Below, piece by piece: positions 1,074 through 30,883 of a DNA stretch of 32,000 nt. The position numbers and the translations under genes are program-made. Source of the DNA: Gemmata obscuriglobus (lineage in GTDB: Bacteria > Planctomycetota > Planctomycetia > Gemmatales > Gemmataceae). The stretch lies in assembly GCF_008065095.1 (NCBI RefSeq), contig NZ_CP042911.1:2070001-2102000 (forward strand). The letters run 5' to 3'. Within the stretch, counting starts at the first letter, position 1; each line of letters opens with the position of its first letter. Under the pieces are notes generated by a model, which searched no databases, was not told where the DNA came from, and saw only the letters and a list, made by a program, of their open reading frames with translations.

Positions 1074-1868
1074 TTATTGAATGTGCGGCGTAATCAGCAC
1101 CTCTTTGTAGAACCGAGTCGGCCCACCCAGCCCACGCCCGAACACAATTGTCTGGATGCGGCAGGTCTTGTAACGGTTCCAGATGGCCGGATGGTCGTCG
1201 TAGGACATTAGCCACGGTGACTGCCGGGCCAACACGATGTCCCGAAGCATCAGATGGTCAAGTTGGGTAAAGCCGTGTGCGTAATACTTGCGCCGAGCGG
1301 CTCCGACGTACGGTGGATCACAATACAGCACGCTGTCGTCGTCTTTGAGCACCTGCCGGAAGTCCAAGTTGGTGATCTTGGCGTCTCTGAGGAGCCGGTG
1401 GGCGTTACGGTACTGCTGCTCTTTCGTGTGCAGTTTCGCTCGTGAGCCGCAGCGGGGGTTAAACGACACGCCCTTCTGCCCGTACGACCAGGCGTGGAGG
1501 GCGCACAAGCGCCAGCCGAGTTCCTTCAGGTCGGCCACGGTTCCGTTGGCGATGGACTGGTGGTACTCCTCCCACTTGTCCCGCTCGCAGTGCTCACCGT
1601 ACAACTTGTCGATCAGGAACTCGTGGTCGTCCCGAATGGTCTTCCAGAAGGCGTAAACCGGACGGTATACGTCGTTCAACCAGACGTCCGCCCACGGCAG
1701 GCGGTCCAGCAAGGTCAGGGCCACGGCCGCACCCCCGGCGAACGGCTCGGTGTACGAAACACCTGGCCGCATGTGCTGGGTGAGCAGGTGCAGGAAGCGG
1801 TGGACGATCCGGCGCTTGCCACCGAGCCACGGGAGCGGGTAGATGAAGTTGCTCTTGTTCTTCGGCAC
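1074..1868 (-). CDS. dam: DNA N6-adenine methyltransferase, Dam / D12 class
   Basis: N-terminal 'PLPWLGGKRR', AdoMet motif 'EPFAGGAAV' and catalytic 'VLYCDPPY' occur in the alpha-class order, and the 264-aa size is typical. GTG start at 1868 with GAGG ~8 nt upstream. The next in-frame Met lies after the GGK motif, so GTG is the only sensible start. Confidence 0.85.
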   Translation of the reverse strand: MPKNKSNFIYPLPWLGGKRRIVHRFLHLLTQHMRPGVSYTEPFAGGAAVALTLLDRLPWADVWLNDVYRPVYAFWKTIRDDHEFLIDKLYGEHCERDKWEEYHQSIANGTVADLKELGWRLCALHAWSYGQKGVSFNPRCGSRAKLHTKEQQYRNAHRLLRDAKITNLDFRQVLKDDDSVLYCDPPYVGAARRKYYAHGFTQLDHLMLRDIVLARQSPWLMSYDDHPAIWNRYKTCRIQTIVFGRGLGGPTRFYKEVLITPHIQ

Positions 1869-7001: not shown

Positions 7002-7040
7002 TCCAACTCCTGAGTAAAGAAGCTCGGGGCGTCCCTGCCT
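7002..7040 (-). repeat. 39-bp leader repeat, copy 1 (immediately 5' of the 6494-6997 gene)
   Basis: Plus-strand 'tccaactcctgagtaaagaagctcggggcgtccctgcct' is identical to 7266-7304. On the coding strand it reads AGGCAGGGACGCCCCGAGCTTCTTTACTCAGGAGTTGGA and contains the RBS. Confidence 0.9.
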
Positions 7041-7060: not shown

Positions 7061-7261
7061 CTACATGATGTCGTTGATGAACTCGGCTGCGGCGCTCAAG
7101 TTGGGGAAATCAAAGCCTATCGGGTCGAATTGGCACTCAGGGTCTTCGGGCGGCCACACGTTGTAAGGCGGCGAAACCTTCAACATGCCGTCCTTCACGC
7201 TCGTAAAGGCACCGACGATATAGCCATAGTGTGTCCAAGTTTCGTTGCCATTCTTTGTCAT
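7061..7261 (-). CDS. hypothetical protein (66 aa)
   Basis: ATG at 7261 (MTKNGNETWTHYGY...) preceded by the same AGGAG-containing leader as the 6494-6997 gene. The track start at 7270 is TTG. Confidence 0.55.
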   Translation of the reverse strand: MTKNGNETWTHYGYIVGAFTSVKDGMLKVSPPYNVWPPEDPECQFDPIGFDFPNLSAAAEFINDIM

Positions 7262-7265
7262 AACA

Positions 7266-7304
7266 TCCAACTCCTGAGTAAAGAAGCTCGGGGCGTCCCT
7301 GCCT
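7266..7304 (-). repeat. 39-bp leader repeat, copy 2 (immediately 5' of the 7061-7261 gene)
   Basis: Identical 39-mer to 7002-7040. Similarity continues, with 2-3 mismatches, through the start codon (cataaTGtcc versus cataaCAtcc). Confidence 0.9.
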
Positions 7305-8048: not shown

Positions 8049-8288
8049 TCAGTTCCGGTGCGGTCTTCGTACCAGCCGCCGGGCGTCACGTTCCAGGCTG
8101 GGGAGCGTGCAACCCTCTGGGCAACGGCGGTACCCAGGAGGTCGCCCCCCTCCGGTCAACAGTTCTGGCCACCACTCACGCCCGCACGCCAGGCACTCGC
8201 ACCGGACCGTGCGACCCGTCGGGCCATCGATCACAGTCACGTCGGCAACGCTTAACGTGTGCGCCGCTGGAATACTGCTTTCATTCAT
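8049..8288 (-). CDS. small Zn-ribbon-like protein (79 aa)
   Basis: ATG at 8288. Cys pairs 'CECLAC' and 'CPEGC'. First gene transcribed leftward from the AT-rich divergent region. Confidence 0.5.
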   Translation of the reverse strand: MNESSIPAAHTLSVADVTVIDGPTGRTVRCECLACGREWWPELLTGGGRPPGYRRCPEGCTLPSLERDARRLVRRPHRN

Positions 8289-8503
8289 GTTTAACCTTTC
8301 AAAATATTTGTAAAAACTTTTATCATCTGAAATCTGAACGCAATTGTGACAAAATAATTCAGCTAATCAAGACGTGTCGGATGCGTGTCGGCGGCGGGCC
8401 TGCTTCCGACTCACGGTTAACGCCCGTATGCTCCGTGATCAAGATTTGAATCGTCGCCAAGCATAGAGTAGTTTGCGCCATTCGCTTTCTTGGAGTGGTC
8501 GCA
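8289..8503. promoter_or_regulatory. AT-rich divergent intergenic region with a tandem 8-mer (divergent promoters and/or origin-like region)
   Basis: 'tttaacctttcaaaatatttgtaaaaacttttatcatctgaaatctgaacgcaattgtgacaaaataattcagctaatcaag' is followed by the direct repeat cgtgtcgg at 8373-8380 and 8384-8391. It lies between genes diverging at 8288 and 8504. Confidence 0.45.
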
Positions 8504-9865
8504 ATGAAATATGTCTGGAACCCACACGACTTCGACCCGCTCAACTTCCTCCCGGCTGCCCTGCGCCGCCAGTCCGACGCCGCCCGTGTCCTCGTCCACC
8601 AGATCGAGTTCCGGCGACTGGACAAGCGGCACAGGGCCGACGAGTGGGTCACCCTCCAGGCCAAGTACCTGCGCAACGTTGTTGGCGTCGACCACTGCGA
8701 GGCGATCCGTGACTGCCTGGCCTCCGAAGGGGTGATTTCCGTCAAACGCAGTTTCGTGGTCGGCCAGAAGTCCTTCGAGTTCAAGATCGGCCCACGGTTC
8801 CAGAACTCCATGTTCCGGCGGTTCCCCATCACCGACAAGTTTCTCCTCCGGCGCATGGGCAAGCACCTCGGCCGCACCGGGCCGAAGGCCGACTGCCCCA
8901 CCGAACTGGCGCTCTACTCGTGGCTGAAGGGGTTGACCATCGACGCCGACGGAGCCAGAGACTACGTTCGGGCACACGGCGGGGCCGCAGAATGGGTCCG
9001 GCAGAAGACGTTAACCGTCGACATGTTGGCGGAACGGGACTTGTGGTTCACGAGGGACCGGTTCGGCCGCATCCACACGAACTTCACGAACCTGTGGTCG
9101 GGGCTGCGGCGGTTTTTGTCGGTGGGCGGCAGTCCCCTTGTCGAAATGGACATTGCCAACAGCCAGCCGCTCTTCTTCGGGCTGTTGGCAATGGTGAAAT
9201 GGCGGTCGTCTCAGGAGGCAAGTTCTCAGTGCCAACAGGACGTGGAAGAGTGTAGGAACAACTCAGGTAGAATTACTAATGTTAATTCCAAATCAATTCT
9301 ATCTCCTCCCCCTCTCCTCTCTCTTTATGATGCGGGAATTCATCATGGCAACATTCGACGGTCTTTGCCTCCTGACCTTGCCGAGTACCTGGGCCTGGTG
9401 GAGCGGGGCGACTTTTACGAGCATCTGATGCGCAAGGCACGCCTCACCTGGGCCAAAAGAAGCCAGTTCAAGGACTCGTTCTTCCAGCACGTCTTCTACG
9501 CCAAAAGGGTGTACCGCAACCCGATCGCCAACGTGTTCCGCAAAGAGTTCCCGACCGCCCACGCCGTCCTGACCGCCATCAAGAAGAGTGACCCGAGGGA
9601 CGCCCCGCACAAGATGCAGCAACTCGAGGCGGACTTCGTGATCGGCACCTGCTGCCGGAAGTTAAGCGCCGATCACCCCGCCGTCCCTTTGCTGACGCTC
9701 CACGACGGCATCTGGACGACACCCGACCACATCGGCCTCGTCCGCCGAACGGTGCAGGACGAGTTCGCCAAGTTGGGTGTGCGCCCTTTGCTGCGGTGCC
9801 GGGCGGCCAGCGACCTTTCCTTGCCCCCTGGCGCTTCCGTACAGACAAGATCGCCGGGCCGATAG
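8504..9865 (+). CDS. minimal family-A DNA polymerase / T7-RNAP-like polymerase (palm and fingers only, ~453 aa)
   Basis: ATG at 8504 with GGAG 8 nt upstream. 'FGRIHTNFTNLWSGLRRFL' resembles the PolA pre-motif-A GR.HT...TGRLS. 'LVEMDIANSQPLFFGLLA' resembles motif A (DYSQIELR). 'RSQFKDSFFQHVFYAK' fits motif B (R-x3-K-x3-F-x3-[FY]). 'LLTLHDGIWT' resembles motif C (HDE in PolA, HDS in T7 RNAP). No exonuclease or N-terminal domain is evident. Confidence 0.65.
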   Translation: MKYVWNPHDFDPLNFLPAALRRQSDAARVLVHQIEFRRLDKRHRADEWVTLQAKYLRNVVGVDHCEAIRDCLASEGVISVKRSFVVGQKSFEFKIGPRFQNSMFRRFPITDKFLLRRMGKHLGRTGPKADCPTELALYSWLKGLTIDADGARDYVRAHGGAAEWVRQKTLTVDMLAERDLWFTRDRFGRIHTNFTNLWSGLRRFLSVGGSPLVEMDIANSQPLFFGLLAMVKWRSSQEASSQCQQDVEECRNNSGRITNVNSKSILSPPPLLSLYDAGIHHGNIRRSLPPDLAEYLGLVERGDFYEHLMRKARLTWAKRSQFKDSFFQHVFYAKRVYRNPIANVFRKEFPTAHAVLTAIKKSDPRDAPHKMQQLEADFVIGTCCRKLSADHPAVPLLTLHDGIWTTPDHIGLVRRTVQDEFAKLGVRPLLRCRAASDLSLPPGASVQTRSPGR

Positions 9866-9904: not shown

Positions 9905-10747
9905 TCACAGGCCGCACATGCCCTGGCACTCACCGGTGGTCAGCGGGTCGATGGTGTTGGGCCATAACTTGGTGAAGTCGATCACGTCCAGCGGCACGCA
10001 ACTCCGGTGGACGAACAACTCCTGCCGGAACCCACGGGTCACGACGCTGCCCTTGTCCCGCAGCGCCCGGTCCACCTCCACCGCCCGTTTCCAACCGTCG
10101 GAATCGGTCTGCTTCAGGGTTAACCACGCCTGGTTCGTGCGGTAGGGGCAGAACACGCACGACGACTTCGGGACTTCGTGGGGCAACTTGTCCTTTAGGT
10201 AGGCCAGGCAGTCCTTGCGGCTCCAGCCCATCTCGATCAGCGGCCAGTGCGGGACCGTGTGCTTGACGCCCTCGAACCGCTTCTTCGCTCGCTCGGCCCT
10301 CGCCGCCTCGTCGGTGCTGATGCCGAAGTACTGGTGCAGGATCACGCCCTTCGGGATGCGCTGCCGGGGTTTCAGTCCCAAGAGTTCCCGCCGGATCGCC
10401 CGTTCGCACACGTCGATCTTGTACTCCTTCGTACACTGCCGCCGAACTATACCGACTTTGCCATCCGGCCCTTTGGTGAACGCCGGGATCGAGGCGAACC
10501 GCTGGCCGGTGGAGTTCCGCCCGTTCACGAGGTCGTCGCCGAGTTTGCCCGCCGCCCGCACCCAGATGTCGGGTGCCCCCAGCGCCCGCAGGTAGTCGAG
10601 GTGGCGATACACGGCGGTCGGCTCCTCCCCGGTGTCGGCGAACACCGCCAGGTCGAAGCGAAATTTGGCGTCGGGTTCCCGTGAGAGCAGGTAGAGGGCG
10701 GTGGACTGCACGCCAGCGCCGAGGTTCAGGATGTGGTACTCGTTCAC
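9905..10747 (-). CDS. phosphoadenosine phosphosulfate (PAPS) reductase-family / PP-loop ATPase-like protein (280 aa)
   Basis: N-terminal PP-loop-like 'HILNLGAGVQSTALYLL' and C-terminal Cys clusters 'SSCVFCPY' and 'GECQGMCG'. Size and layout match the phage/mobile-element PAPS-reductase-like family. GTG start, with an in-frame TAG 6 nt upstream. Confidence 0.75.
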   Translation of the reverse strand: MNEYHILNLGAGVQSTALYLLSREPDAKFRFDLAVFADTGEEPTAVYRHLDYLRALGAPDIWVRAAGKLGDDLVNGRNSTGQRFASIPAFTKGPDGKVGIVRRQCTKEYKIDVCERAIRRELLGLKPRQRIPKGVILHQYFGISTDEAARAERAKKRFEGVKHTVPHWPLIEMGWSRKDCLAYLKDKLPHEVPKSSCVFCPYRTNQAWLTLKQTDSDGWKRAVEVDRALRDKGSVVTRGFRQELFVHRSCVPLDVIDFTKLWPNTIDPLTTGECQGMCGL

Positions 10748-10875: not shown

Positions 10876-11199
10876 TCAGCGTGCCGCCCGTCCCGCCCGG
10901 TAAGCGGCGGTCAGCGCCCTCTCGATCTCCCAACACGCTACCTCGTGGAAGTCCAGTCGATCCGACTTCCGGGCCTCGAGGGGCCACTTGAAAGCCTGTT
11001 CCGCCACCCGCCGCACCGCCTCTTTCACGGGGTCAGCACCCGCCAGCACGAACGCCCCGTTCTCGTCCTTCGTTAGCAGGACGGCAGCGCAGGTAGGGCA
11101 GGTCGGCTCCCGCACGCACTCGCCACCGGCTCGGTAGAATTCCGTTACCCACGCCGGAGCGGTGTCGGCCCGAACCCCGCAAAAGTAGCACTCGGCCAT
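10876..11199 (-). CDS. small Zn-ribbon protein (107 aa)
   Basis: Track ORF trimmed to the ATG at 11199 (MAECYFCG...) with GGAGGGG upstream. Contains 'CYFC' and 'CPTC' pairs. Lies between the XRE gene and the PAPS-reductase-like gene on the same strand. Confidence 0.55.
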   Translation of the reverse strand: MAECYFCGVRADTAPAWVTEFYRAGGECVREPTCPTCAAVLLTKDENGAFVLAGADPVKEAVRRVAEQAFKWPLEARKSDRLDFHEVACWEIERALTAAYRAGRAAR

Positions 11200-11365
11200 C
11201 TCTTCCCCTCCACGTTTTTTCCCCGGACGAGGCACTTCGTACTACCTCGGTCCGCCGCCCGAGTGCCAGCACGGTTGCGAGAAACCGACCTTCGGACCCG
11301 CCAGAAACCGGCTCCGATCCGCCACATCTGAATGTGTTCGGCCGCTGGTGGGGAACAGGAAGGGG

Positions 11366-11740
11366 TCACCCGCCCAACCGGGCCAGGAGGGGCACGAGCA
11401 GTTGCAGCGTGTTCCGGTCGGCCGATCCGACGAGCGCCTCGAACAGGCGCCGGGCCTCGGCCCTCAGCACCTCGTCCGGGTCCGGGGGCGGGTCGGTCGG
11501 TAGCAGTTCGGCGGCCGTCGTGCCCAGCGCCTGAGCCAGCCGGTCCAGCAGGTCGATGCCCGGTGCGGCCCCGGCCGCCTCTAAACGCCCGACGTAGTTA
11601 ACCGTCACGTCCGCACGCTCGGCGACCTCGGCCTGTGTCAGCCCCAGCGCCGTCCGCCGCTCTTTGAGGCGGTCGGCGAACCGGCGGACGATGGCGGCGT
11701 GGGTGATCCGGCCCTTCTGGGCCTTCTTGTCGGGTGGCAT
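11366..11740 (-). CDS. XRE-family helix-turn-helix transcriptional regulator (124 aa)
   Basis: Track ORF trimmed to the ATG at 11740 (MPPDKKAQKG...). 'LGLTQAEVAERADVTVNYVGRLEAAGAAPGIDLLDRLAQALG' is a canonical HTH_3/XRE motif. Confidence 0.8.
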   Translation of the reverse strand: MPPDKKAQKGRITHAAIVRRFADRLKERRTALGLTQAEVAERADVTVNYVGRLEAAGAAPGIDLLDRLAQALGTTAAELLPTDPPPDPDEVLRAEARRLFEALVGSADRNTLQLLVPLLARLGG

Positions 11741-11753
11741 CCGGGATAACTTG

Positions 11754-11884
11754 GCCCGTTTGCCCGTCCGAGGGGAGCGCACATTAGTGGTGGTTGACCA
11801 ATTGAAAAGTGGTGCTACGCTTTTGAAGCGGTTGCCGTGGCGCTCCTGTCGTGTGCGGCCGGTGGACGGACGGGCACGACGGGC
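11754..11884. promoter_or_regulatory. divergent control region with mirrored ACGGGC repeat pairs (candidate operators)
   Basis: gcccgt at 11754 and 11762, and acggGC (its reverse complement) at 11870 and 11879. Each pair ends 14 nt from the ATG of the gene it faces (11740 and 11898). Confidence 0.5.
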
Positions 11885-11897
11885 AAGGGGACGAGTG

Positions 11898-12089
11898 ATG
11901 CTTCGCAAGCTCAAGGCGTGGTGGCTGAATCGGAAGCTGAGGAGCCTGCAATCCGACCTGGACTACATGACCAACTACGAGCAGGTCACCGGAGCGCCCA
12001 AGCCCGGCTGGGTGGACGCTGCCATCGTCAACGCCCGCATCCAGGTCGCCCTAGTTAACCGTGACCTGGATGCCCTCGGTCGGGGGTAA
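11898..12089 (+). CDS. small hypothetical protein (63 aa) divergent from the XRE regulator
   Basis: ATG at 11898 (MLRKLKAWWLNRKLRSLQSDL...). The long track ORF 11664-12089 overlaps the XRE gene and is trimmed here. Confidence 0.45.
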   Translation: MLRKLKAWWLNRKLRSLQSDLDYMTNYEQVTGAPKPGWVDAAIVNARIQVALVNRDLDALGRG

Positions 12090-12177: not shown

Positions 12178-12501
12178 ATGACGACGTGTTCGACCTGCCG
12201 CATGGACATCCCCTACGGGGCACGGGTCTGTCCGTTTTGCCGGGACGACCGGCGGGCGGAGGCCCGAGAAGAAGACGAAGACAATGTGGCCATGTTCCGC
12301 TTCGTGGTGAGTGCCGTTCTCTTCGGTGCGCCGGCGTGCCTGCTTTGGTACCGGTCGCCGCTGGGGGACGAGTACCGGGGGGCGTTCTGGCTAATCGTAC
12401 CGGCGGCCGGTGCGCTGGGATATCGCATCGTGGCCCGGTACACGGTGGCCGCCGTGCTGACCGCCATCGCCTTACCGGTCGGCTACTTCTGGTTCCGGTA
12501 A
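12178..12501 (+). CDS. Zn-ribbon membrane protein (107 aa)
   Basis: ATG at 12178 with GGGGAGGG upstream. 'CSTC...CPFC' ribbon, followed by hydrophobic segments (FRFVVSAVLFGAPACLLWY, FWLIVPAAGALGY, AAVLTAIALPVGYFWF). Confidence 0.6.
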   Translation: MTTCSTCRMDIPYGARVCPFCRDDRRAEAREEDEDNVAMFRFVVSAVLFGAPACLLWYRSPLGDEYRGAFWLIVPAAGALGYRIVARYTVAAVLTAIALPVGYFWFR

Positions 12502-12699
12502 GTCGCTGGGCCGCTTGGCGTCACCGACTTACCGGCTACGGGTGCGCCGGCGTCGGGTTCACGCACGACGGGTGGCCTGCGGGCGGTAGTGTAGTCGAAG
12601 GGAACGCACGGGCACCGACGCCTGCTCGTTCCGTCGGTCATCGCTCGAGGGCGTGTTGCCCGCCTCGGCCCTGTTCGCTCACCGCACAGAGGAAACGCC

Positions 12700-13788
12700 A
12701 TGCATCGAACGGTCGCCACCGTGCTGCTCGTGCTGCTCGCTCCCGTTGCCCGTGCCGACGACGGCGAGGGCGCAGCGGTCAAGGCCATCGAGAAGTGGGG
12801 CGGCAAGGTTAAACGTGACCCCAAAGGCGTGGTGACCCATGTGATGCTCCGGGGCAAAACGGTCACCGACGCCGACCTGAAGGCGCTCGCCCCGCTCACC
12901 GGCCTGACCGATCTCGACCTCTCGTCCACCCCGGTCACAGACGCCGGCCTGAAGCACCTCGCCCCGCTCACCAAGTTGACGGCCCTCAACCTCGGCGGCA
13001 CGAAGATCACGGACGCCGGGCCAACGGAACTCGCCCCGCTCGCCGTGCTGACCGACCTCAACCTCTCTTCCACCCAGGTCACAGACGCCGGTCTGAAGGA
13101 GGTCGCCCGGCTCCGAACGTTGGTGGCCCTCGACCTTTCCCACACCGGGGTGACGAACGCCGGACTGGGGCACCTGACCCTGACCAAAATGCGCTCCCTC
13201 AGCCTCCGTGGGACCAAGATAACGGACGGCGGGCTGCGGGAGATCAGGATCATGAGCGTGTCGGGCCTGGACCTCTCCGGCACCGCCCTCACGGACGAGG
13301 GGCTGAAGGACTTGGGCCTGTTCGAAGAAATCACCGGCCTCGACCTGTCGGACACGAAGGTGACGAGCAACGGCCTGAAGGAACTGGCCTCACAGCCCAC
13401 GTTAAAGTTCCTCAGCCTGAGCAGGACCAAAGTAGGGGACGCCGGGCTGAAGCACCTCGCCCCGCTGAAGCGGCTGGAGTCCCTGTACCTGAACGGGACG
13501 GGCGTCACGGGCACCGGGGTGAAGGAACTCGCCCCGCTCGAACGGCTGAGAATCTTGGAACTCACCGGCACGATGGTGACGGGCGGCGGGTTGAAGCACC
13601 TCTCCACGCTCCCGAGACTCGCAATCCTGCGTCTTTCCGATGCCGCCGTGACGGACGAGGGGCTGAAGGACATCGCCCACCTCAAAACGCTCCTGGCGCT
13701 CGACCTCTACCGAACGAAGGTGACCGGTGCCGGCGTTGCCGAGTTGAGGAAGGCGCTGCCGAGGTGCGACATCGGCTGGAAGGAGTAG
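12700..13788 (+). CDS. secreted leucine-rich-repeat (LRR) protein (362 aa)
   Basis: ATG with GAGGAA RBS. Signal-peptide-like 'MHRTVATVLLVLLAPVARADD'. About 12-13 tandem 24-25-aa units of the form L..L..L..L.LS.T.VTDAGLK.LA. Confidence 0.9.
   Translation: MHRTVATVLLVLLAPVARADDGEGAAVKAIEKWGGKVKRDPKGVVTHVMLRGKTVTDADLKALAPLTGLTDLDLSSTPVTDAGLKHLAPLTKLTALNLGGTKITDAGPTELAPLAVLTDLNLSSTQVTDAGLKEVARLRTLVALDLSHTGVTNAGLGHLTLTKMRSLSLRGTKITDGGLREIRIMSVSGLDLSGTALTDEGLKDLGLFEEITGLDLSDTKVTSNGLKELASQPTLKFLSLSRTKVGDAGLKHLAPLKRLESLYLNGTGVTGTGVKELAPLERLRILELTGTMVTGGGLKHLSTLPRLAILRLSDAAVTDEGLKDIAHLKTLLALDLYRTKVTGAGVAELRKALPRCDIGWKE
12832..13750 (+). repeat. in-frame ~72-75-bp tandem periodicity encoding the LRR units
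   Basis: Recurring 'gtcacagacgccggcctgaag' and 'ctcgccccgctc' segments. This is a coding repeat, not CRISPR. Confidence 0.8.
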
Positions 13789-14421: not shown

Positions 14422-15225
14422 TCATACTCTCGTTAGTGTGCCGTCGGCCAGAAGTCGGTCGAAATGTCGCTCCACTTGTCCCGGTAGCCCTCCTCCCGTC
14501 ACGAGCAGGCCCAACTCCATGTTGATGGTGAAGGCGTACTCGGTGAAGTTGGCACTCGACAGGAACATTCGGTGTCCGTCGGCGACTGCACATTTGACGT
14601 GCAGGATGCCGATCTTGCCGTTGTCGTCCCGGCCCCGCTTTTCCTGGGGCCAGTAGTATACCGAGCAGGACGATGCAACGCTCCCGCCCAGCGCTCGCAC
14701 GCAGTCGTACTCCCCCTGGCCCTCGACCCGGTTCGGCGTCTCCACGATCAAGCAGATGGCAACGCCACGGCGGGCCGCAGCGACGAGCGCCTCACGGATG
14801 CGTGGAATCCGGTAGACAGCATAGCTCACGATAGTCAGGCGGCTCGTCGCCGAGTTCACCACTTCCAGGATGGCCTGCTCCGTCTGGCGGAACCGGGCCT
14901 CGGCGGGTTCCGGGCCGGTCCAAACGACCTCGACCGTCTCCTCATGCCGGTGGTTGTGTTCGCACTTCGCTGCCGTGACTATGGCCACGGCGACCGCCTC
15001 GCCTCCGACGCAACCCGCCGTCGAATGCCAAACGTCGATGAATTCGGCGGTCGCCTCCCTGAAGTCGGGCGTCGGCACGGACTGAAGAATCGCTTGCCGG
15101 GCCACCGCTCGGTCGAGGCTGCTGTACCGGGTCACGGCGTCGGCCACGCCCACCATCAGTGCGTGAGGCAAACGACCCGCCAGCCGTGCCGCCGCCGCCC
15201 CGATCTGCTGGTGTTCGTGGCTCAT
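14422..15225 (-). CDS. drmC: phospholipase-D-family (HKD) nuclease, DISARM DrmC-like (267 aa)
   Basis: Single HKD motif 'ILHVKCAVADGHRMFLSSANFT'. ATG at 15225 lies 5 nt after the drmB stop. The 553-aa track ORF is an artefactual N-terminal extension that overlaps drmB. Confidence 0.85.
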   Translation of the reverse strand: MSHEHQQIGAAAARLAGRLPHALMVGVADAVTRYSSLDRAVARQAILQSVPTPDFREATAEFIDVWHSTAGCVGGEAVAVAIVTAAKCEHNHRHEETVEVVWTGPEPAEARFRQTEQAILEVVNSATSRLTIVSYAVYRIPRIREALVAAARRGVAICLIVETPNRVEGQGEYDCVRALGGSVASSCSVYYWPQEKRGRDDNGKIGILHVKCAVADGHRMFLSSANFTEYAFTINMELGLLVTGGGLPGQVERHFDRLLADGTLTRV

Positions 15226-15230
15226 AGCTT

Positions 15231-17138
15231 TCACCGGAAGAATGCCAACTCGCTCGACTCGCCCGTCTCCACCGTGGGGGCCAGGACCGCCCGGTCGAGG
15301 TACTTGTTGCCCCGCTCGCATGATGTCTCCGGGGCAAACAGGCAGGCGTGGCACGAGGCGGCGTGCAGGGTGATCCCGTCCCGGTACGGGTGGTGTTCGG
15401 CGCACAGCGGGTCGCTGGCGCACAGCCGCACGTTGTCGAGCGCCTGGTCCAGGTGCCGCTCCAGGGCCTCCGGTCTGCCCAGCGATACCAACCCGCCGAG
15501 CGTGCCTTCGCTGTCCGGCGCTGCGGTGTAGATCAGCACGCCCGCCATCTCCGGCTGTTCCTCGCCGGGGTTGCGGGAGTAAATCCGCTCCCGCAGTGAG
15601 GCCGTGGTGTACCCGCATTCGACGGACAGTTGGCGGATCAGGGCGTGGGCAAACGAGTGCAGCAGGACGTACCGCAGGCCCGGATAAAAGTCCTGGGGCG
15701 GGTCGAGCTTCCGGGCCGTCCGCCACCGCTGATGGGCTTCGAAGAACCGCCCGTCGAGCGTCTCGTTCTTCTTCACCCACGTCTGGATCAGGCTCTCCTT
15801 GAAGTGGAAGAACAGCCCCTCGCCCCGAATCTCCGACGCCGGAACCCAGGCCGGGTCTTTGCGGGAGAGTCTGGCCCGCTGATTCGGTGGGAACGCTGCC
15901 GGGTTGTCGTAGTCGCTCGGCGACTCGATGCGGGAGAAGCCGACCAGCGCCCGCACCTCTCGCAGCCGCTCGGCCAGGACCACCTTCTCGAAATACTTGG
16001 CGTACCGTTTCGGCGGCGGGACGGCCCGCAACTGGAAGTCCCGCCCCGTTTCCGCCGAGCCGGGGTCGGTGAAGACCTCCCATTCCGGCGTCTTGAGGTC
16101 GGACGGGTCGCCGCCTTGGTCCGGCACGGCGGTCTTCTTGGTCTGAACCGCCTGCCAGATGTCGGCGGGCGTGTACTCGGCCAGGTCACGCAACTGCGGC
16201 GTCACCGCCTGGAGGAGTTCGATGTTCTGCTCGCTTTGGACCTTCTCCAGAATGGTCCAGTGGTCATCGACAAGCTGTTTTAGCTTCCCAGACGCCTGCG
16301 GGATCGCCAGCGCTGTGAGCGTCAGACCGAACCACGAGTTCGATGCCCCCTGGAGCATTGGCTCCGCCCGCACTTCCACGCCAATGGGCGTCTTGCAGCC
16401 GCACTCGTCGTGGTCCCGCAAGTGGGGGCGGCGGGCCTTGCAGACCGGCAGCGCCTGGAGGTCCATCTTGAAGGCATCCGACATTGGCCGAGAGAGTAGA
16501 ACGGGCTTCCCATCTCGATAACCTAATCCGTGATCCGCCTCGCACTGCACATAGATGCTCGAAGCTTCGCCAGTGGCCGAGGGTTCGAGCAGCTTCAACC
16601 CGCCTTGGCATTTAGTCGGCCCGCCGTGGACGAAATTCCGCCACGGGAAGTCGTCCAGGTGGCCGTTCTTGCACGCCACGATGAAGCGGGCGGGAACCAC
16701 GGTCGGTGGCTTCCCCGGCTTGGTACAGTTGGCGTGGACGTACCGAATCTGGTCGGTACGGTACGGCGTCTCCAGCTTGAACAGCCCACCGCCGAGAGGT
16801 GCCAGCCGACGACAATAGGGGCAGACCATCCACCGGGGGAACGGGGCGACCGGGATGCCGACCAGGGCCGACGAGTCGAACTGGTTGACCTGATGCGTGT
16901 CCGGCACGACCGGGGCCGACCGCAATGCGGCTACCTGCGCCCCCAGCACTTCCTTGACCGACGCCAAGAGCCGCTGCTCCCCGATCTCCACCGTATCCTT
17001 GAGCGGCCAGTCCTCTAGCCCCATCACCATGACCGACAGGTTCGGCAGGTCGATGATCGCCCCGACGCCGAACGTGGTGAGCGCCTGGCTGGGGCGCAGT
17101 TCACCCACCTTGAAGCGTTTCTGGTCCTTCGGGGTCAT
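15231..17138 (-). CDS. drmB: DUF1998-domain protein, DISARM DrmB-like (635 aa)
   Basis: C-terminal 'CHACLFAPETSCERGNKYLDRAVL' is the DUF1998/MrfA-type Zn motif. N-terminal 'LRPSQALTTFGVGAIIDLP' and the Cys cluster 'CPYCRR...ANC' are also present. The ATG at 17138 overlaps the drmA stop (ATGA). Confidence 0.85.
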   Translation of the reverse strand: MTPKDQKRFKVGELRPSQALTTFGVGAIIDLPNLSVMVMGLEDWPLKDTVEIGEQRLLASVKEVLGAQVAALRSAPVVPDTHQVNQFDSSALVGIPVAPFPRWMVCPYCRRLAPLGGGLFKLETPYRTDQIRYVHANCTKPGKPPTVVPARFIVACKNGHLDDFPWRNFVHGGPTKCQGGLKLLEPSATGEASSIYVQCEADHGLGYRDGKPVLLSRPMSDAFKMDLQALPVCKARRPHLRDHDECGCKTPIGVEVRAEPMLQGASNSWFGLTLTALAIPQASGKLKQLVDDHWTILEKVQSEQNIELLQAVTPQLRDLAEYTPADIWQAVQTKKTAVPDQGGDPSDLKTPEWEVFTDPGSAETGRDFQLRAVPPPKRYAKYFEKVVLAERLREVRALVGFSRIESPSDYDNPAAFPPNQRARLSRKDPAWVPASEIRGEGLFFHFKESLIQTWVKKNETLDGRFFEAHQRWRTARKLDPPQDFYPGLRYVLLHSFAHALIRQLSVECGYTTASLRERIYSRNPGEEQPEMAGVLIYTAAPDSEGTLGGLVSLGRPEALERHLDQALDNVRLCASDPLCAEHHPYRDGITLHAASCHACLFAPETSCERGNKYLDRAVLAPTVETGESSELAFFR

Positions 17139-20100
17139 GGGGCGGCTCCCTCCTCGTCCTCGCCCTCGTCGTCCATGCCGAAGGTGTCGAGGATCAGGTT
17201 GGCGGTCGGCTCCACGTCCCGGAGCGAGTTGAGGCAGGTGAACTCGTCCCACGGCTCGATGCTCGGCTTGCGGAGCAGGCCGACCGTCACCCCGTCCTTC
17301 TTCGTCTCGTAGCCGAGTTGGTTCCCCTGGGCCGTCCGCTGTGCCCGCTTCTGCCACAGGTCCATCTTCCGCTTGAGTTGCTGGCGGACCTCCTCGGCGG
17401 TGTCCGGCCCGGCGACCAGTTCGGCCCGCCTCGTGATGACCTCAATGGCGTCGGCGACGTACTGGTGGCCCCGCTGGGTCGCCATCAGCATCGCCTTGTC
17501 GTTCGAGTTAAACTCGAACCCCCGCTGCCGGACCAAGGCCACCAAGAGCGCCGCCAGCCCACGGGCTGTCGCCCCCGCTGAGAACGGCGTGACCGACAGG
17601 GCCTCGACGTGCTTGTAGAAGGTCGAGTGGTAATGCTCGAACGTTTCGTAGTGGGACAAGTCCCGTGGCCTCGCCCAGTTGAACACCGTGCAAACGAGGC
17701 CGGGGAACTTCCGCCCGACCCGGCTCGACGCCTGAATGTACTCCGCAGTCGTCTTCGGCTGCCCGCCGACCACCATCAGGCCGAGGCGTGGTACGTCCAC
17801 GCCGACCGAGATCATGTTGGTGGCCAGCAGCACGTCGATGGGGCGGCGGATGAACTCCGCACTCCCCTTCCGCTTCTTGATCTCGTCCAGAATGTCTGGG
17901 TCGAACCGGCTCTCCAGCAGGTCGAGCGTTTCCGGGATCGCCGTCGATCCCAGCCGGGAGGTCAGTTCCTTCACCGTGTCAGGGGTGTACAGCGTACGGC
18001 TCGCCAGCCCCCGGTCATGCATTCTGCGGAGCCGGGTACGCACGTCGTCGTCCACCAGCCGCTTCATGCCGCCGAGTTCCCGCAGACTGTTGAAGTACCC
18101 CACGAGCGTCATCCACGGGTCGGCGTCCAGACCGTATTTGTCGAACAACACCTGCCCGGCAGACAGGAAGGCGACGTACACCCGGATGAGCGCCGCCTTG
18201 AGCCGCCGACCGGGGGCGCAGATGCCGATGTACTTCCGCCCCGGAGTCTTCTCCCCCGATTGCCGCTGGAGGGAGAAGAAGTTGTCGGCGATCTCCAGGC
18301 CGCTCGGCGGGAACACGTTCAGGCTGCGGAGGAACAGTCCGTACACCTGATCGCTCGCCCGGCGAATGGTCGCCGTGGACGCCACCACCTTGGGCCGCAC
18401 CTTCTTGCCGTTCACTTCCCAGGTGCAGAGCCGGTCGATGGCCGTCTCGTACAGGCCGACCAGCGTACCGAGCGGCCCACTGATGAGGTGCAACTCGTCC
18501 TGGATGATGAGGTCGGGCGGGCGCAGCGGGTTTTGCGCTACCACCCTCGCTTGGGGGATACTTCCCTTAGCCCGGTGGACGCCGCCGACCTCCAGTTCCT
18601 CGGACGCCTCGGCCAGACCGGGGGACCGAAATCCGTGCCGCTCGCAGTACCCGTCCACCTGTCCGAACAACATCTGTACCGACCCGTTCCACGGCATCTG
18701 AGCGAACTTGTCCACGGTGGTAATCAGGAGCGACGGCAAGCGGCGGTAAATCTCCTCGTCCACCACCATCACCGGCAGCCCCTCGCCCGGCGCTTCCTTC
18801 ATCGAGAACTTGCACTGGCCGAACTTGGCCCCACAGTAGATCAACGTGCGGCACGCTCCCTCGGCGTACTTCTCGACCTTAATGTGCTTGCCGGGGTCGA
18901 TCTTCGTCCCGCACCACGGGCAATTGGTGAGTTGGTGTGGGGACGCCGTCCCCGACTTGGGCTTGCCGCCGTGGGCCGACTTCACCGCCTCGTCCGCATC
19001 GCTGGTCCAGTTCGGCGTTGTGCTGCCGCCGACCCACAGGCCGATGCGGAACGGCGTTCTCCCCCATCGGGTTTCGCCGTGACTCAGGGCCGTGCGGCGG
19101 ATGTCTTCACAGGCGCAAATGAGCGCCGCCGCCCGCTGGAACTGCTGGAGTGTCAGGAGCCGGAGCGTGTATCGCATCAAGACGGTAACGCCATTCTCGC
19201 CGGAACGCCCCTCGATCACGCCCTGGAGCCGCCGCAGGCCGAGCGTGTAGGCAGTCAGGCCGAGGTACGCTTCTGTCTTCCCGCCGCCCGTGGGGAACCA
19301 GAGCAGGTCGGCGACGGCGTCCGGCGACTCGCCCCGTTCGGGGTGGTCGAGCTTCGTGATACCGGGCAGGTTCAGCAGGACGAAGGCAAGTTGGAACGGA
19401 TACCACGAGCGGTTTACCGGGATGTCGATGGCCCCCATGTCGGGCTTCTCGTCGCCCCGCCGCACCCGCTCTGCGAACTGCGAGTGGGTCCGCTGGAGCC
19501 ACATCGCCCGGTTCATGAACTGGAACGCCTGCGCCGCCTTATCGTCCTTATCGAGCAGGTCCAGTCCGGCCTCGATCCGCTGGAGGGTGGTGCGGCAGCG
19601 GGTGAGCGCTTGGCGGGTGGCGTGCTGGAAGTGCGTCAGCCCCTCGGCGGGGTCGGCGATTCGCTGATCTTCCCGCTCGATCCAGTCCCGGTACGCCTCG
19701 ACCAGTGGCTTGAGCATCGGGCGGTACTGCTTCGGGCTGGCCTCGGCCAACAGTTTCATGTCGAGGACCAGCCCCTCCAGCTTAGCAAAGGCCGGATTGG
19801 TCCCGGCGTCGGCGGGCGTTGGCGGGGTAGTCTTAGGAACCTCGTAGGTCGGCACGACCCTGGTGCGGACCCGGACGGCGTGTGTCGGGTCGGGCGACAC
19901 GTCCACATGCACACCGATCCCGTGGCCCACGGCGAACTCGACGTGCCGCCGATACAGCATCCCCAGCAGTTCGTTCTCGGCCTTCACAGCCGGGTCCGTG
20001 CCGGTGAGTTCGAGGATGGTGTGCCGCTTGTGCAGGACCGCCGCCCCACCGACCCCTTCCGCCATCAACTCCGGCTGGAACACCCAGGCGGCGTCCTTCC

Positions 20101-20752
20101 GCTTCTCCGGCTCCTGCTGCTCGTTGACCAGGAACAGGGTGACGCACCAGTGGTCGGTCCGCTTGCGGACGAGGCCCTGGACGACGACTTCGGGGCAGTT
20201 GTGATCGACCACGACCGGCTGGAGCGGGCCGTCCTTCAACGGCAGCCGGTGCTTGCCGCCACGGGGATACCGCTTCCACACCAAGCGGGGGTTGCCAGTC
20301 TTCTCGCTGACGAGGTACTCGCTCTTCTCCCGGAGGTACTGCCCCCAGGCGGCGGACAGATCGATCTCGCTGGCCTCAGGGTTAACCGAGAAGGTCATGC
20401 CGAACGACGACGGGATCAGGGCCTTGGCCTGCTCCTGGGCGGCTTCCCGGTCGGTCGGCCCGTCCTGCGACGTGTCTTTGCCGCCTAGCGCCAGGTCGTC
20501 GCCGTCGAGGATTTCCCCGTCCGTATCACCGTCGTCGTCCTCGTTGGTCTGGGGCGGGGCGGGTCGAGCGGGTGCGACCTCGGCGGTTCGCTTCCGGGGG
20601 GCCAGCACGCCGACGAAGTACCGAGTTCCGGGCGACTCGGTGATCTCCTCCTCGGCGCTGCCGGGGCCGAGGAGTTCCTTCAGAACCATCGTTTCCAGTT
20701 CGTCCCGCAACTGGAGGGGCGAGGGCGGCTTCGGCAACGCTGGCAAACTCAT
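17135..20752 (-). CDS. drmA: superfamily-2 DExH helicase, DISARM DrmA-like (1205 aa)
   Basis: Motif I 'LWFPTGGGKTEAYLG', motif II 'LIIQDELHLISG', motif III 'ASTATI', motif V 'LLATNMISVGVDVPRL' and motif VI 'YIQASSRVGR'. ATG at 20752. Confidence 0.88.
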   Translation of the reverse strand: MSLPALPKPPSPLQLRDELETMVLKELLGPGSAEEEITESPGTRYFVGVLAPRKRTAEVAPARPAPPQTNEDDDGDTDGEILDGDDLALGGKDTSQDGPTDREAAQEQAKALIPSSFGMTFSVNPEASEIDLSAAWGQYLREKSEYLVSEKTGNPRLVWKRYPRGGKHRLPLKDGPLQPVVVDHNCPEVVVQGLVRKRTDHWCVTLFLVNEQQEPEKRKDAAWVFQPELMAEGVGGAAVLHKRHTILELTGTDPAVKAENELLGMLYRRHVEFAVGHGIGVHVDVSPDPTHAVRVRTRVVPTYEVPKTTPPTPADAGTNPAFAKLEGLVLDMKLLAEASPKQYRPMLKPLVEAYRDWIEREDQRIADPAEGLTHFQHATRQALTRCRTTLQRIEAGLDLLDKDDKAAQAFQFMNRAMWLQRTHSQFAERVRRGDEKPDMGAIDIPVNRSWYPFQLAFVLLNLPGITKLDHPERGESPDAVADLLWFPTGGGKTEAYLGLTAYTLGLRRLQGVIEGRSGENGVTVLMRYTLRLLTLQQFQRAAALICACEDIRRTALSHGETRWGRTPFRIGLWVGGSTTPNWTSDADEAVKSAHGGKPKSGTASPHQLTNCPWCGTKIDPGKHIKVEKYAEGACRTLIYCGAKFGQCKFSMKEAPGEGLPVMVVDEEIYRRLPSLLITTVDKFAQMPWNGSVQMLFGQVDGYCERHGFRSPGLAEASEELEVGGVHRAKGSIPQARVVAQNPLRPPDLIIQDELHLISGPLGTLVGLYETAIDRLCTWEVNGKKVRPKVVASTATIRRASDQVYGLFLRSLNVFPPSGLEIADNFFSLQRQSGEKTPGRKYIGICAPGRRLKAALIRVYVAFLSAGQVLFDKYGLDADPWMTLVGYFNSLRELGGMKRLVDDDVRTRLRRMHDRGLASRTLYTPDTVKELTSRLGSTAIPETLDLLESRFDPDILDEIKKRKGSAEFIRRPIDVLLATNMISVGVDVPRLGLMVVGGQPKTTAEYIQASSRVGRKFPGLVCTVFNWARPRDLSHYETFEHYHSTFYKHVEALSVTPFSAGATARGLAALLVALVRQRGFEFNSNDKAMLMATQRGHQYVADAIEVITRRAELVAGPDTAEEVRQQLKRKMDLWQKRAQRTAQGNQLGYETKKDGVTVGLLRKPSIEPWDEFTCLNSLRDVEPTANLILDTFGMDDEGEDEEGAAP

Positions 20753-20829
20753 CTCAAAACCTCGAACGCTTGTAGTCGTCGCACGGCGAACAACACCCGT
20801 CGTTCACCGTCGTGAGAGGTTGCAGAGCT

Positions 20830-27353: not shown

Positions 27354-27356
27354 GGC

Positions 27357-30300: not shown

Positions 30301-30539
30301 AGGGCGACCTTCTCGACCACCCTGGCCCCCGGCTCAAGTTCCCAAACGACGTTCAGTTCTTCGCCCAGGCCGTCGTCCTCGACCGACGACAGGGTAACGA
30401 GGTGCTGCGGCGAGTCCAACCCGGCGTGCAGTCGTTCGGACGGCAGGGTGCTGGCGGATACGTCCGTGACCATCCAGTTGCGGGACCGGACGCTGACCAT
30501 CTGGCCCTGTTCGGGGTGTCGAGAGGTTATGGGCGTCAT
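27357..30539 (-). CDS. drmD: SNF2-family helicase, DISARM DrmD-like (~1060 aa)
   Basis: 'DYQLDPV', motif I 'LLVADDVGLGKTIEAG', motif II 'LLIVDEAHNC', motif III 'LTATPHNG', motif V 'LLATDAAAEGLNLQ' and motif VI 'WNPNRLEQRNGRIDRHGQ'. I chose the ATG at 30539 (MTPITSRHPEQGQMVSVRSRNW...). The frame stays open to a TTG at 30635, so the 5' end is uncertain. Confidence 0.85.
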   Translation of the reverse strand: MTPITSRHPEQGQMVSVRSRNWMVTDVSASTLPSERLHAGLDSPQHLVTLSSVEDDGLGEELNVVWELEPGARVVEKVALPDPTGFDPPEQLDAFLDAVRWGASSSADVRTIQAPFRSGIDIEDYQLDPVVRAIQMPRVNLLVADDVGLGKTIEAGMVALELIIRHRTRKILIVCPAPLQVQWQEQMRDKFGLDFRIVNSALVGQLRRSRGIHVNPWNHFPRLITSIDFLKRERPLRRFRELLPGPDDPIYPRRFDLLIVDEAHNCAPSGVGRYATDSQRTQALRQLVPHFEHKLFLTATPHNGYPESFSALLELLDNQRFARSTPPDRKQLNAVMVRRMKSELPPKWDGSPRFPKRVLDPIEVPYTDDERAVHTALRRYADLRVERAQDSTEKLATEFVLKTLKKRLFSSPAAFLKTLEQHEQSLRQARRGKAVRKSSVNVLKQELDRADEDYADDGEYDEAMTDALDAASLLFTEPSTEELALLRQMRTWAETATAQLDSKVNRLIEWLNTHLRPNKKWSAERVIIFTEYRATQNWLLEILAQRGFTGGERLMTMYGGMDSEEREEVKAAFQSAPDISPVRLLLATDAAAEGLNLQNHCYRLIHYEIPWNPNRLEQRNGRIDRHGQKGFLADSGERQVFVYHFVGQGYKKRQHSAFAAKAADLDADLEFLMRVAQKVETIREDLGSYGTVLADDVEQAMLGRGYSMPGVVRADAKSEPVRKMLKFERDLAKQINDLLEQYRETQRELRLSPENIRKVVEVGLALAEQPALIPVPHSSGKPVFTLPALKHSWAACAEGLEHPHTKEIRPITFDHSAADGRDDIVLAHLNHRLVQMSLRLLRAEVWSVKGRKRLHRITARLVPNHVLNTPAVVAHARLVVIGGDSHRLHEEIITAGGQIKEGRFSRLNVGDIEKLLAAVTGDEPYEPMQRHLLELWDKLAPGLSQSLEVRMRDRTAGLQKKLGERGEKEAEDIRAIMLELKKAIDTELAEQANHQPGLFDDLLEQDQFDRNKDFLRARSKAIPAEIEREAAAVQARYADPQPRMFPVAVTFLVPEKMRKG

Positions 30540-30640
30540 CTCGGTCGTGCCTTCCGGTTCGGCGAAAGCGCCGGACTCCGCCGTGATCGGGCCGTTCCCC
30601 GCAGCAATCTTTAAAGTGCTGTTCGTGAAGCCCAAGTATC

Positions 30641-30883
30641 CTACGGTGACGAGGGACGCCTCGCCACCGGGAAAGTCGCCCTGTTGCGTCTGTCCTCACG
30701 GCTGAAGTACGCCCGCATCCCCTCGATCTGCCCCGGAGCGAACAGCGCCCGCCGCTTGAACACCACGCCCGGCCCCGGCAAGTACCCCGAATCGACGGCG
30801 TACCGCAACCGCCACACGGCCACCCCCAGCACCTCCGCCGCCCCTGCATATGTGTAGCACTCCCATTTGTTAACATTCGTCAT
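30641..30883 (-). CDS. small Xis/AlpA/MerR-like helix-turn-helix DNA-binding protein (80 aa) directly upstream of drmD
   Basis: ATG at 30883 with GAGGA upstream. 'YTYAGAAEVLGVAVWRLRYAVDSGYLPGP..FKRRALFAPGQIEGMRAYF' fits the HTH_17/excisionase-type pattern (..aA..Lgvs..tl.r....G.lp......r..f....i..w.). Confidence 0.65.
   Translation of the reverse strand: MTNVNKWECYTYAGAAEVLGVAVWRLRYAVDSGYLPGPGVVFKRRALFAPGQIEGMRAYFSREDRRNRATFPVARRPSSP

Follow-up and report, generated by a model that had tools for sequence, protein, structure and literature searches.

We describe a predicted minimal polymerase that is encoded on an integrated mobile element of the planctomycete Gemmata obscuriglobus and that most likely acts as a DNA primase-polymerase in the DNA synthesis of that element, a role to which we give a probability of about one half. 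Its gene lies in a 32,000-nucleotide (nt) stretch of contig NZ_CP042911.1 (RefSeq assembly GCF_008065095.1, positions 2,070,001 to 2,102,000), referred to below as the window. The assignment of the product as a minimal polymerase related to DNA polymerase I (PolA, here Pol I) and to the RNA polymerase (RNAP) of phage T7, with an apparently intact active site, is supported because structural matches of its model were confined to family-A enzymes and because its catalytic residues are conserved. Also supported by the model and by gene context is the view that the enzyme is a mobile-element polymerase of the TV-Pol kind, which was defined computationally in 2008 (Iyer, Abhiman and Aravind, Biol Direct 3:39; PMC2579912).

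The initial annotation of the window, made from its letters and a list of its open reading frames (ORFs), had delimited a 453-amino-acid (aa) ORF, and the GenBank gene call gives the same product, identical to WP_010046617.1 (GobsT_17940); the gene is also called in a draft assembly of G. obscuriglobus (GCA_000171775.1, contig ABGO01000224.1). An in-frame GTG at position 8495 is an alternative start, with which the product would be three residues longer (456 aa). NCBI labels the protein hypothetical, and UniRef carries it as 'DNA-directed DNA polymerase family A palm domain-containing protein'.

Modelling with AlphaFold2 and the family alignment gave a structure with a predicted local distance difference test score (pLDDT) of 85.7 and a predicted template modelling score (pTM) of 0.82. 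Foldseek comparison of this model with the PDB returned exclusively family-A DNA polymerases (DNAPs) or single-subunit RNAPs (50 of the 50 matches listed, 16 of them at E ≤ 1e-3), including Taq, Klenow, Bst, Aquifex Pol I, apicoplast Pol, Pol theta, POLRMT and T7 RNAP; the template modelling scores (TM-scores) of 0.25–0.45 are low because these targets are about twice as large. The best matches in the viral structure library BFVD were phage proteins of about 400 aa (TM-score 0.66–0.73, E 8e-20), and further ones comprised phage Pol I proteins, barbavirus and Aeromonas-phage proteins and a 'DNA replication protein' of Zamilon virophage, the structural match to this Zamilon V13-like protein being weak (E 2e-3). 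In the model, D216 lies on a strand (residues 213–217), helices occupy residues 220–390, and H400 and D401 lie between two strands (397–399 and 402–405). This succession of strand-Asp, inserted fingers and hairpin-HD corresponds to the palm of the RNA-recognition-motif type, with the fingers inserted between motifs A and C, that was described for TV-Pols (PMC2579912). With reference numbering taken from the real Pol I and T7 RNAP sequences, hhalign placed R319, K323, F327 and Y332 in register with R754, K758, F762 and Y766 of Pol I, Q372 with Q849 and H400-D401 with H881-D882, and also H400-D401 with H811-D812 of T7 RNAP (S813 standing next), in profile-against-single-sequence alignments whose E values of 0.1–0.3 (0.11 for motif B against Pol I) are statistically weak.

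The family behind these alignments is large. A word-indexed search yielded 26 homologs, and an exhaustive profile search of 1.84 billion cluster representatives (50% identity) yielded 8,940 proteins at E ≤ 1e-3, 3,301 of which reached E ≤ 1e-30; most members have 370–500 aa and match over the whole profile. A repeat of the large-scale homolog search with the family profile brought no additions, and a scan of the long family members recognised no informative domain fusions. Conservation was counted in an alignment of 84 diverse homologs with a mean column identity of 22%. Nine residues are invariant (R189, R202, D216, Q221, P222, Y305, P350, E375 and H400), and several more are nearly so, namely D401 and K323 (83/84 each), Q372 (82/84), N219 (81/84), S220 (79/84) and G188 (78/84). 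The position of R319 holds Arg in 71 and Lys in 10 homologs, that of F327, equivalent to F762 of Pol I, holds Phe in 56 and Tyr in 19, and that of residue 332, equivalent to Y766 of Pol I and Y639 of T7 RNAP, holds Phe in 47 and Tyr in 34. The acidic fingers residue D291 is conserved as well (Asp in 62 homologs, Glu in 15). At residue 402, directly after the second catalytic aspartate, Ser predominates (75/84, the others having Cys (4), Gly (3) or Ala (2)), giving a family consensus for motif C of T-[IV]-H-D-S.

These results bear on most of what the initial annotation had proposed about the protein. The four PolA motif strings that it had pointed out are all present (residues 188–205, 212–225, 319–332 and 399–402) and conserved across homologs, the two catalytic aspartates recur in 84 of 84 (D216) and 83 of 84 (D401) sequences, and the palm fold was recovered by structure search, in which the matches listed were all of family A or single-subunit RNAPs. 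The family-A or T7-RNAP-like character of the enzyme, with its motifs, accordingly stands, as does the absence of an exonuclease domain. The motif C that it had read as HDG is correct for the Gemmata protein but atypical, and is a quirk of the Gemmata clade in a family that otherwise has HDS, as T7 RNAP does. What does not stand is the description of the protein as palm and fingers only, with neither thumb nor N-terminal domain. The first 110 or so residues of the protein form a conserved N-terminal domain, which is followed by a thumb-like set of short helices (residues 112–176; Table 1).

The N-terminal domain, modelled alone, reached a pLDDT of 88.5 and a pTM of 0.84, with the order α1-β1-α2-α3-β2-β3; in residues, its elements are a strand (2–7), a helix (18–40), a strand (49–52), two helices (53–60 and 65–74), a hairpin (78–85/88–95) and a last strand (104–109). 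It is present in most family members, whose coverage begins at profile positions 1–3. Its Foldseek matches in the PDB were almost all winged-helix DNA binders, the best being the N-terminal, iteron-binding domain of a Rep protein from a staphylococcal plasmid, in complex with DNA (5kbj/4pql; E 0.016, probability 0.92). Because no match reached E ≤ 1e-3, we assign it to the winged helices tentatively; a winged-helix-like domain in this position had previously gone unremarked. The helices that follow it may form a short thumb, to judge from their position before the β-hairpin and from the published description of TV-Pol. In the hairpin, the strands at residues 182–184 and 190–192 carry R189, and the two invariant arginines are 13 residues apart, against 14 in Pol I (R654/R668). 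The fingers would span approximately residues 220–390, and a clade-specific insert within them (about 231–288) is predicted to be disordered.

Whether such an enzyme makes DNA or RNA should be reflected in its sugar-selectivity residues, and the initial annotation had suggested aligning the steric gate and the motif B tyrosine for this purpose. The steric-gate position of Pol I, Glu710, is taken here by Gln221, five residues after the motif A aspartate (D+5) and invariant in 84 of 84 homologs; T7 RNAP has Gly542 at this position, and single-subunit RNAPs other than T7 RNAP have Gly there too. The position of Pol I F762, which is Met635 in T7 RNAP, is Phe or Tyr in 75 of 84 members. The Y766/Y639 position varies freely between Phe and Tyr, whereas T7 RNAP keeps Tyr639, which helps ribonucleotide selection. 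Gln at D+5, Phe or Tyr at the F762 position and a variable Y639 position lean weakly towards the use of deoxynucleoside triphosphates (dNTPs). The alignment does not settle the choice between dNTPs and ribonucleotides.

The features described so far point to a template-dependent nucleic-acid polymerase that has the family-A fold and is probably catalytically competent; from these and from related systems we infer that it would make DNA and not RNA and would prime de novo, and that its N-terminal domain would bind DNA. TV-Pols were predicted to act as primase plus polymerase (PMC2579912), and the only one tested biochemically, CcPol-MP of the staphylococcal cassette SCCmec, is a dNTP-using primase-polymerase (Bebel et al. 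2020, PMC7581432), in which CcPol by itself extends primers only, primes together with the adjacent oligonucleotide/oligosaccharide-binding (OB)-fold protein MP and works with the adjacent helicase Cch2 (PMC7581432). We suggest that the Gemmata enzyme would initiate and elongate DNA on element DNA that is single-stranded or nicked, and that this synthesis would serve replication of the excised element or production of the second strand after transfer. The hold on DNA that CcPol obtains through its separate partner MP would come here from the enzyme's own N-terminal domain. Among the functions that the initial annotation had listed (replicase, transcriptase or template-independent enzyme), this narrows the choice towards a primase-polymerase without settling it.

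Several observations weigh against a primase-polymerase. The family is known from sequence and predicted structure alone, and its sequence link to PolA is weak: the protein had zero matches in Pfam (E ≤ 10), PHROGs, NCBIfam, PADLOC or the PDB sequences, the profile of the 84 sequences had none in the PDB sequences, and the hhalign E values were those given above. In Pfam searches with the 84 members, none matched DNA_pol_A (PF00476) and four matched RNA_pol (PF00940), weakly (best E 0.0066) and far under the gathering score. The HDS motif C of 75 of the 84 members is a trait of T7 RNAP, and query TM-scores were highest for POLRMT (0.40–0.45, against 0.25–0.34 for DNAPs); together with a Ser four residues after the motif A aspartate, these features lean to the RNAP side. 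The winged-helix assignment depends on matches with E ≥ 0.016. [quoted passage not shown] Clustering of 647 ORFs around 40 non-redundant homologs revealed no neighbour family recurring in more than 9 of the 40 loci, the neighbourhood is variable on jumbo-phage-like contigs, and one plasmid-borne homolog is accessory rather than a replicase.

That homolog is a full-length, 524-aa member (hhalign probability 100%, E 1e-42) on the 35-kb Hymenobacter qilianensis plasmid NZ_CP060788.1. It adjoins a CAP12/Pycsar-type TIR-domain protein, and the plasmid also carries ParA, a Rep3 initiator and a resolvase (L080 19347–23338, L081 4118–6751). We considered that this copy might occupy a parA-parB-rep-like slot and rejected this, given its TIR-domain neighbour and the Rep3 and ParA of the plasmid itself; because of the latter two, the copy is accessory. 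Since no neighbour family exceeds 9 of 40 loci, and in view of the Hymenobacter context, the polymerase family has no obligate partner gene and is accessory on some replicons. Elsewhere, divergent homologs adjoin integrases, helix-turn-helix (HTH) excisionase-like genes of the HTH_17 type, serine recombinases or resolvases, and DNA methyltransferases, and recurring neighbours include homing-endonuclease-like genes, a superfamily 2 (SF2) helicase, gp32 and an Fpg/Nei-like glycosylase. One compact setting is an integrative cluster (L014) of about 5 kb with the order int, xis, xis, a 174-aa gene, pol, and genes for 63, 378 and 63 aa. When viral contigs were scanned, 54 loci came up, many of them on contigs 100–500 kb long, and tblastn against annotated phages matched only in 'uncultured phage' records of 595–735 kb.

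This spread of contexts is where the best-placed alternative, which we nevertheless regard as unlikely, has to be weighed. The enzyme might be a primer-dependent accessory DNA polymerase that fills gaps, repairs DNA or bypasses lesions for the element or phage, does not prime and is dispensable for element replication. The fold and active-site evidence fits this equally well, CcPol without MP merely extends primers (PMC7581432), and the same role has been proposed for the analogous divPolA2 of phages (PMC11348598); the Hymenobacter plasmid with its own Rep3 and ParA speaks for it too, as do the variable neighbourhoods in jumbo phages, at times with the Fpg/Nei-like glycosylase, gp32 and SF2 helicase. 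Yet in the roughly eight-gene L014 cluster the polymerase is the largest gene and the sole evident candidate for DNA synthesis, the conserved extra N-terminal domain suggests more than plain extension, and a proofreading or lesion-bypass signature is absent.

Less probable still is a minimal single-subunit DNA-dependent RNAP, which would transcribe the element or phage or make RNA primers, with the N-terminal domain recognising promoters. In favour of this reading, single-subunit RNAPs, themselves enzymes of the A family, start synthesis de novo and need no separate priming partner; further points for it are the resemblance of the T-[IV]-H-D-S motif C in 75 of 84 members to H811-D812-S813 of T7 RNAP, the D-to-Ser spacing of +4 (T7 RNAP D537...S541), the weak PF00940 matches in 4 of 84 members against 0 of 84 for DNA_pol_A, and the POLRMT entries at the top of the TM-scores; the same possibility has been raised for divPolA2 (Yutin et al., PMC11348598). 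The residues closest to the substrate argue otherwise: the Gln at D+5 is invariant where T7 RNAP has Gly542, the position of T7 Y639 is Phe in 47 of 84 members, that of T7 M635 is Phe or Tyr as in DNAPs, and the family's 'GRxHT' is the 'GRVHT' of Pol I and not the 'GRVYA' of T7. At 350–450 aa, moreover, the proteins are too small for a specificity loop, an intercalating hairpin and a large N-terminal domain of the T7 type, and the PF00940 matches fall far under the gathering score.

A component of defence or counter-defence, for example one that synthesises DNA against restriction on entry or is a partner of immunity genes, is highly improbable. It would fit the DISARM operon and capH-like regulator at the Gemmata locus, type I restriction–modification (R-M) and AbiC in Bremerella, Lamassu-like genes, type I R-M and ArdC-N at the homolog locus P0008, the TIR-domain CAP12/Pycsar-type neighbour on the Hymenobacter plasmid, and the orphan D12 and N6_N4 methyltransferases and AcrVA2-like gene in the same elements. 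Such co-location is expected, because mobile elements routinely carry defence cargo, and TV-Pol elements had already been noted in hot spots of R-M and mobile elements (PMC2579912); in addition, no PADLOC model matches, there is no fixed partner, and the polymerase gene stands by itself in the orientation opposite to its neighbours. A pseudoenzyme was rejected because the catalytic residues are conserved across homologs.

The element that carries this candidate primase-polymerase is integrated in the chromosome and extends over at least about 43 kb between two recombinase genes (Table 1). We place the polymerase gene in it because of these flanking recombinases, because genes found here recur near homologs at other planctomycete loci, and because of the contrast in GC content between the left module (56–63%) and the DISARM region (65–68%). 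Its insertion site may have been comEC. The large serine recombinase lies about 1–3 kb left of the window, a RuvB-like AAA+ gene and the tyrosine integrase lie about 7–10 kb right of it, and genes of these three types are found together again beside the homolog P0008. A Gemmata JC717 homolog, 67% identical to the polymerase, has a 280-aa gene beside it in the position held here by the 280-aa 3′-phosphoadenosine-5′-phosphosulfate (PAPS)-reductase-like gene and is also flanked by DUF6878/DUF6915. DISARM is cargo of the element, and the PAPS-reductase-like, DUF6900, capH-like, D12 methyltransferase and 80-aa genes are typical mobile-element accessory genes. No D5-like helicase was found nearby. 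Antisense to the leucine-rich-repeat (LRR) gene, a 400-aa ORF (12483–13685, minus strand) overlaps it almost fully; it has no family matches and is probably a spurious ORF of high-GC DNA.

Table 1. Coordinates of the polymerase gene, its predicted domains and motifs, and other genes of the element. Positions are those of the window unless a locus number is given.
Feature	Position	Strand	Basis or remark
Polymerase ORF	8504–9865	+	453 aa from ATG; product WP_010046617.1
N-terminal domain, residues 1–~110, winged-helix-like (tentative)	8504–8833	+	models; profile coverage across the family
Helical region, residues 112–176 (helices 112–125, 132–142, 148–158, 162–176), candidate short thumb	8837–9031	+	AlphaFold2 secondary structure
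Pre-motif A β-hairpin, residues 182–207, invariant R189 and R202 (family GRxHTNxTxL...R; here G188-R189-IHTNF...R202)	9047–9124	+	model and alignment
Motif A, residues 212–225 (LVEMD216IANSQPLFF)	9137–9178	+	strand ends at D216, then N219-S220-Q221-P222-L-F-F
Clade-specific low-confidence fingers insert, residues ~231–288	9194–9367	+	pLDDT <50 at 256–269; absent in ~394-aa phage-type homologs
Motif B / O-helix, residues 319–333, R319-x3-K323-x3-F327-x4-Y332 (R319SQFK323DSFF327QHVFY332)	9458–9502	+	hhalign register with Pol I
Helix 366–390, Q372 (Pol I Q849 equivalent) and invariant E375	9599–9673	+	model, hhalign, alignment
Motif C hairpin, residues 396–405, T398-L-H400-D401-G402	9689–9718	+	aligned with Pol I H881-D882 and T7 RNAP H811-D812-S813
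AT-rich stretch, candidate promoter	8285–8375	+	upstream of polymerase gene; one sigma-70-like match, TTCAAA-17-TATCAT, 8298–8326
Large serine recombinase, 567 aa, abutting 346-aa ComEC-like ORF (DUF4131 + Competence)	L017 8195–11001, ~1.2–4.0 kb left of window position 1		
Orphan D12 adenine methyltransferase	1074–1868	-	leftward from polymerase gene, amid small unknown genes
PAPS-reductase-like gene, 280 aa, phage-type	9905–10747	-	phrog_424 1.9e-35; weak SspD-like match; convergent with polymerase gene
DUF6900 gene	10876–11235	-	
capH-like HTH_3 regulator	11366–11914	-	
LRR-repeat protein, 362 aa	12700–13788	+	Pfam LRR_6 2.7e-30
DISARM operon, class-1-type, complete	14422–30635	-	DrmA, DrmB, DrmC at E ≤ 1e-69
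DISARM DrmC/PLD	14422–16083	-	start uncertain
DISARM DrmB/MZB	15231–17357	-	start uncertain
DISARM DrmA	17135–20752	-	
Extra LmuB/SMC-like gene, 677 aa	20830–22863	-	between DISARM methylase and DrmA
DISARM Eco57I/MmeI-type N6 methylase	22842–27353	-	
DISARM SNF2 helicase	27357–30635	-	
80-aa gene directly upstream of DISARM	30641–30883	-	HTH-like by eye
DUF6878/DUF6915, AcrVA2-like, RuvB-like AAA+ ATPase, tyrosine integrase	L018 274–6742, ~window +34.1 to +40.6 kb		

The polymerase gene is alone on the plus strand between minus-strand genes. Its candidate promoter is a consensus match alone, of which the shuffled region yields 0.6 on average. Across the AT-rich spacer, and divergent from the polymerase gene, lies a 79-aa ORF (8049–8288, minus strand) with a zinc-ribbon-like CxxC...CxxC pattern, which is absent from the gene table of the draft assembly. 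Farther left, a perfect 39-nt direct repeat (TCCAACTCCTGAGTAAAGAAGCTCGGGGCGTCCCTGCCT) at 7002–7040 and 7266–7304 brackets a 66-aa gene (7061–7261, minus strand). Inside the polymerase ORF, a perfect 14-nt inverted repeat (9151–9164 / 9180–9193) lies over the motif A codons, with a DNA folding z of -3.0; we rejected it as a functional element, and it is probably coincidental, because synonymous changes disrupt the pairing in Gemmata JC717 and Urbifossiella without compensation.

With this family the PolA/T7-RNAP fold reaches its lower limit of size, and the family bears on the divergence of DNA and RNA synthesis because it mixes Pol I-like traits (GRxHT, F762-like) with T7-RNAP-like ones (HDS, D+4 Ser). 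If the proposed activity is right, an enzyme of about 400 aa would rank with the smallest family-A polymerases in nature, and it would provide a third priming route beside DnaG and the archaeo-eukaryotic primases (AEPs), widespread in integrative elements and jumbo phages. A bolder extension, which we hold to be doubtful, is that the family comprises single-chain replication starters, in which a Rep-like winged helix recognises or grips element DNA while the PolA core primes de novo and extends, as a partner-independent counterpart of CcPol-MP; if true, at least 8,940 clusters (50% identity) would form a major uncharacterised primase class outside DnaG and AEP. Since Pfam and NCBIfam lack a model for this large family, thousands of 'hypothetical proteins' would gain an annotation from one curated model together with a single biochemical characterisation.

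Compared with known systems, the Gemmata protein shares with canonical family-A enzymes (Klenow, Taq, T7 DNAP and the T7 and mitochondrial RNAPs) the palm and fingers and the motifs A to C, with catalytic and O-helix residues in register. It differs in having a polymerase domain of about half the mass, no domains for exonuclease activity, about 23 residues fewer between the second Arg and motif A, NSQP instead of YSQIE and HDS or HDG instead of HDE in the family, and no match to the Pfam DNA_pol_A model. With T7 RNAP in particular its family has the HDS motif C in common, whereas Gly542 is replaced by Gln in 84 of 84 homologs, the Tyr639 position is Phe in 47 of them and Tyr in 34, and the N-terminal domain of the Gemmata protein matches winged-helix proteins and not that of T7 RNAP. 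The 2023 classification of PolA into 19 clusters neither covers nor cites TV-Pol-type enzymes (PMC10201439).

The divPolA2 proteins of barbaviruses and related phages have about 430 aa, an active-looking palm and the same ambiguity between DNAP and RNAP (Yutin et al. 2024, PMC11348598), and they resemble the Gemmata family in the absence of an exonuclease and a canonical thumb, the N-terminal globular domain, the variable neighbourhood and structure matches to both DNAPs and mitochondrial RNAP. Identity with them was rejected, since hhalign against AUR84708 gave E 0.032 and a probability of 1.6% over 38 columns and hmmsearch gave no match; R189, R202 and D216 were in register in that alignment. 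By these comparisons divPolA2 appears to be a remote relative with analogous architecture. CcPol, a truncated relative of Pol I that comes nearest to the CHEAP cluster (PMC10201439), is likewise an exonuclease-less A-family polymerase of an integrative element with serine recombinases, with the catalytic Asp pair and an F762 equivalent, and PolA-SSB pairs are grouped here with CcPol-MP (PMC10061031). CcPol keeps the steric-gate Glu (E174) and is without the TV-Pol N-terminal domain, whereas motif A of the Gemmata protein reads D216-I-A-N-S-Q221-P-L223, with Gln at D+5 and, two residues beyond the SQ, Leu or Phe in the family and no Glu; the Gemmata protein brings an N-terminal domain of its own, and neither a small gene nor a helicase is conserved next to it. 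It is not of the CcPol-MP subtype.

The closest parallel is TV-Pol itself, a name that the initial annotation had put forward. The name is real, and the structure and context of the Gemmata enzyme agree with it, although no sequence-level link to named members was established: a search with the family hidden Markov model against every ORF of cyanophage Ma-LMM01, a named TV-Pol carrier, gave no match. The finding is not new in kind and its novelty is modest, because TV-Pol was predicted in 2008 with G. obscuriglobus among the listed species; the alignment legend names 'Gobs: Gemmata obscuriglobus', and planctomycetes are in the data set (PMC2579912). TV-PolN was described as all-helical, whereas the Gemmata N-terminal domain is predicted to be α/β and winged-helix-like, and the Gemmata locus is without the D5-like helicase that is fused or adjacent in some TV-Pol contexts, others combining TV-PolN with a resolvase, lambda-type integrase or transposase (PMC2579912). 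TV-Pols were described as standalone proteins of about 400–600 aa from viruses and the mobile elements of bacteria, found at integration hot spots where R-M systems and mobile elements abound. Their minimal domain was given as a two-helix thumb, a β-hairpin whose Arg is absolutely conserved, a palm carrying two conserved Asp, and fingers with a conserved Asp and RxxxK (PMC2579912). In the Gemmata protein, the model and alignment place helices 112–176 before the hairpin, R189 in the hairpin, D216 and D401 in the palm, and D291 and R319-x3-K323 in the fingers, and recombinase, integrase and R-M or defence genes are found in its element and beside its homologs.

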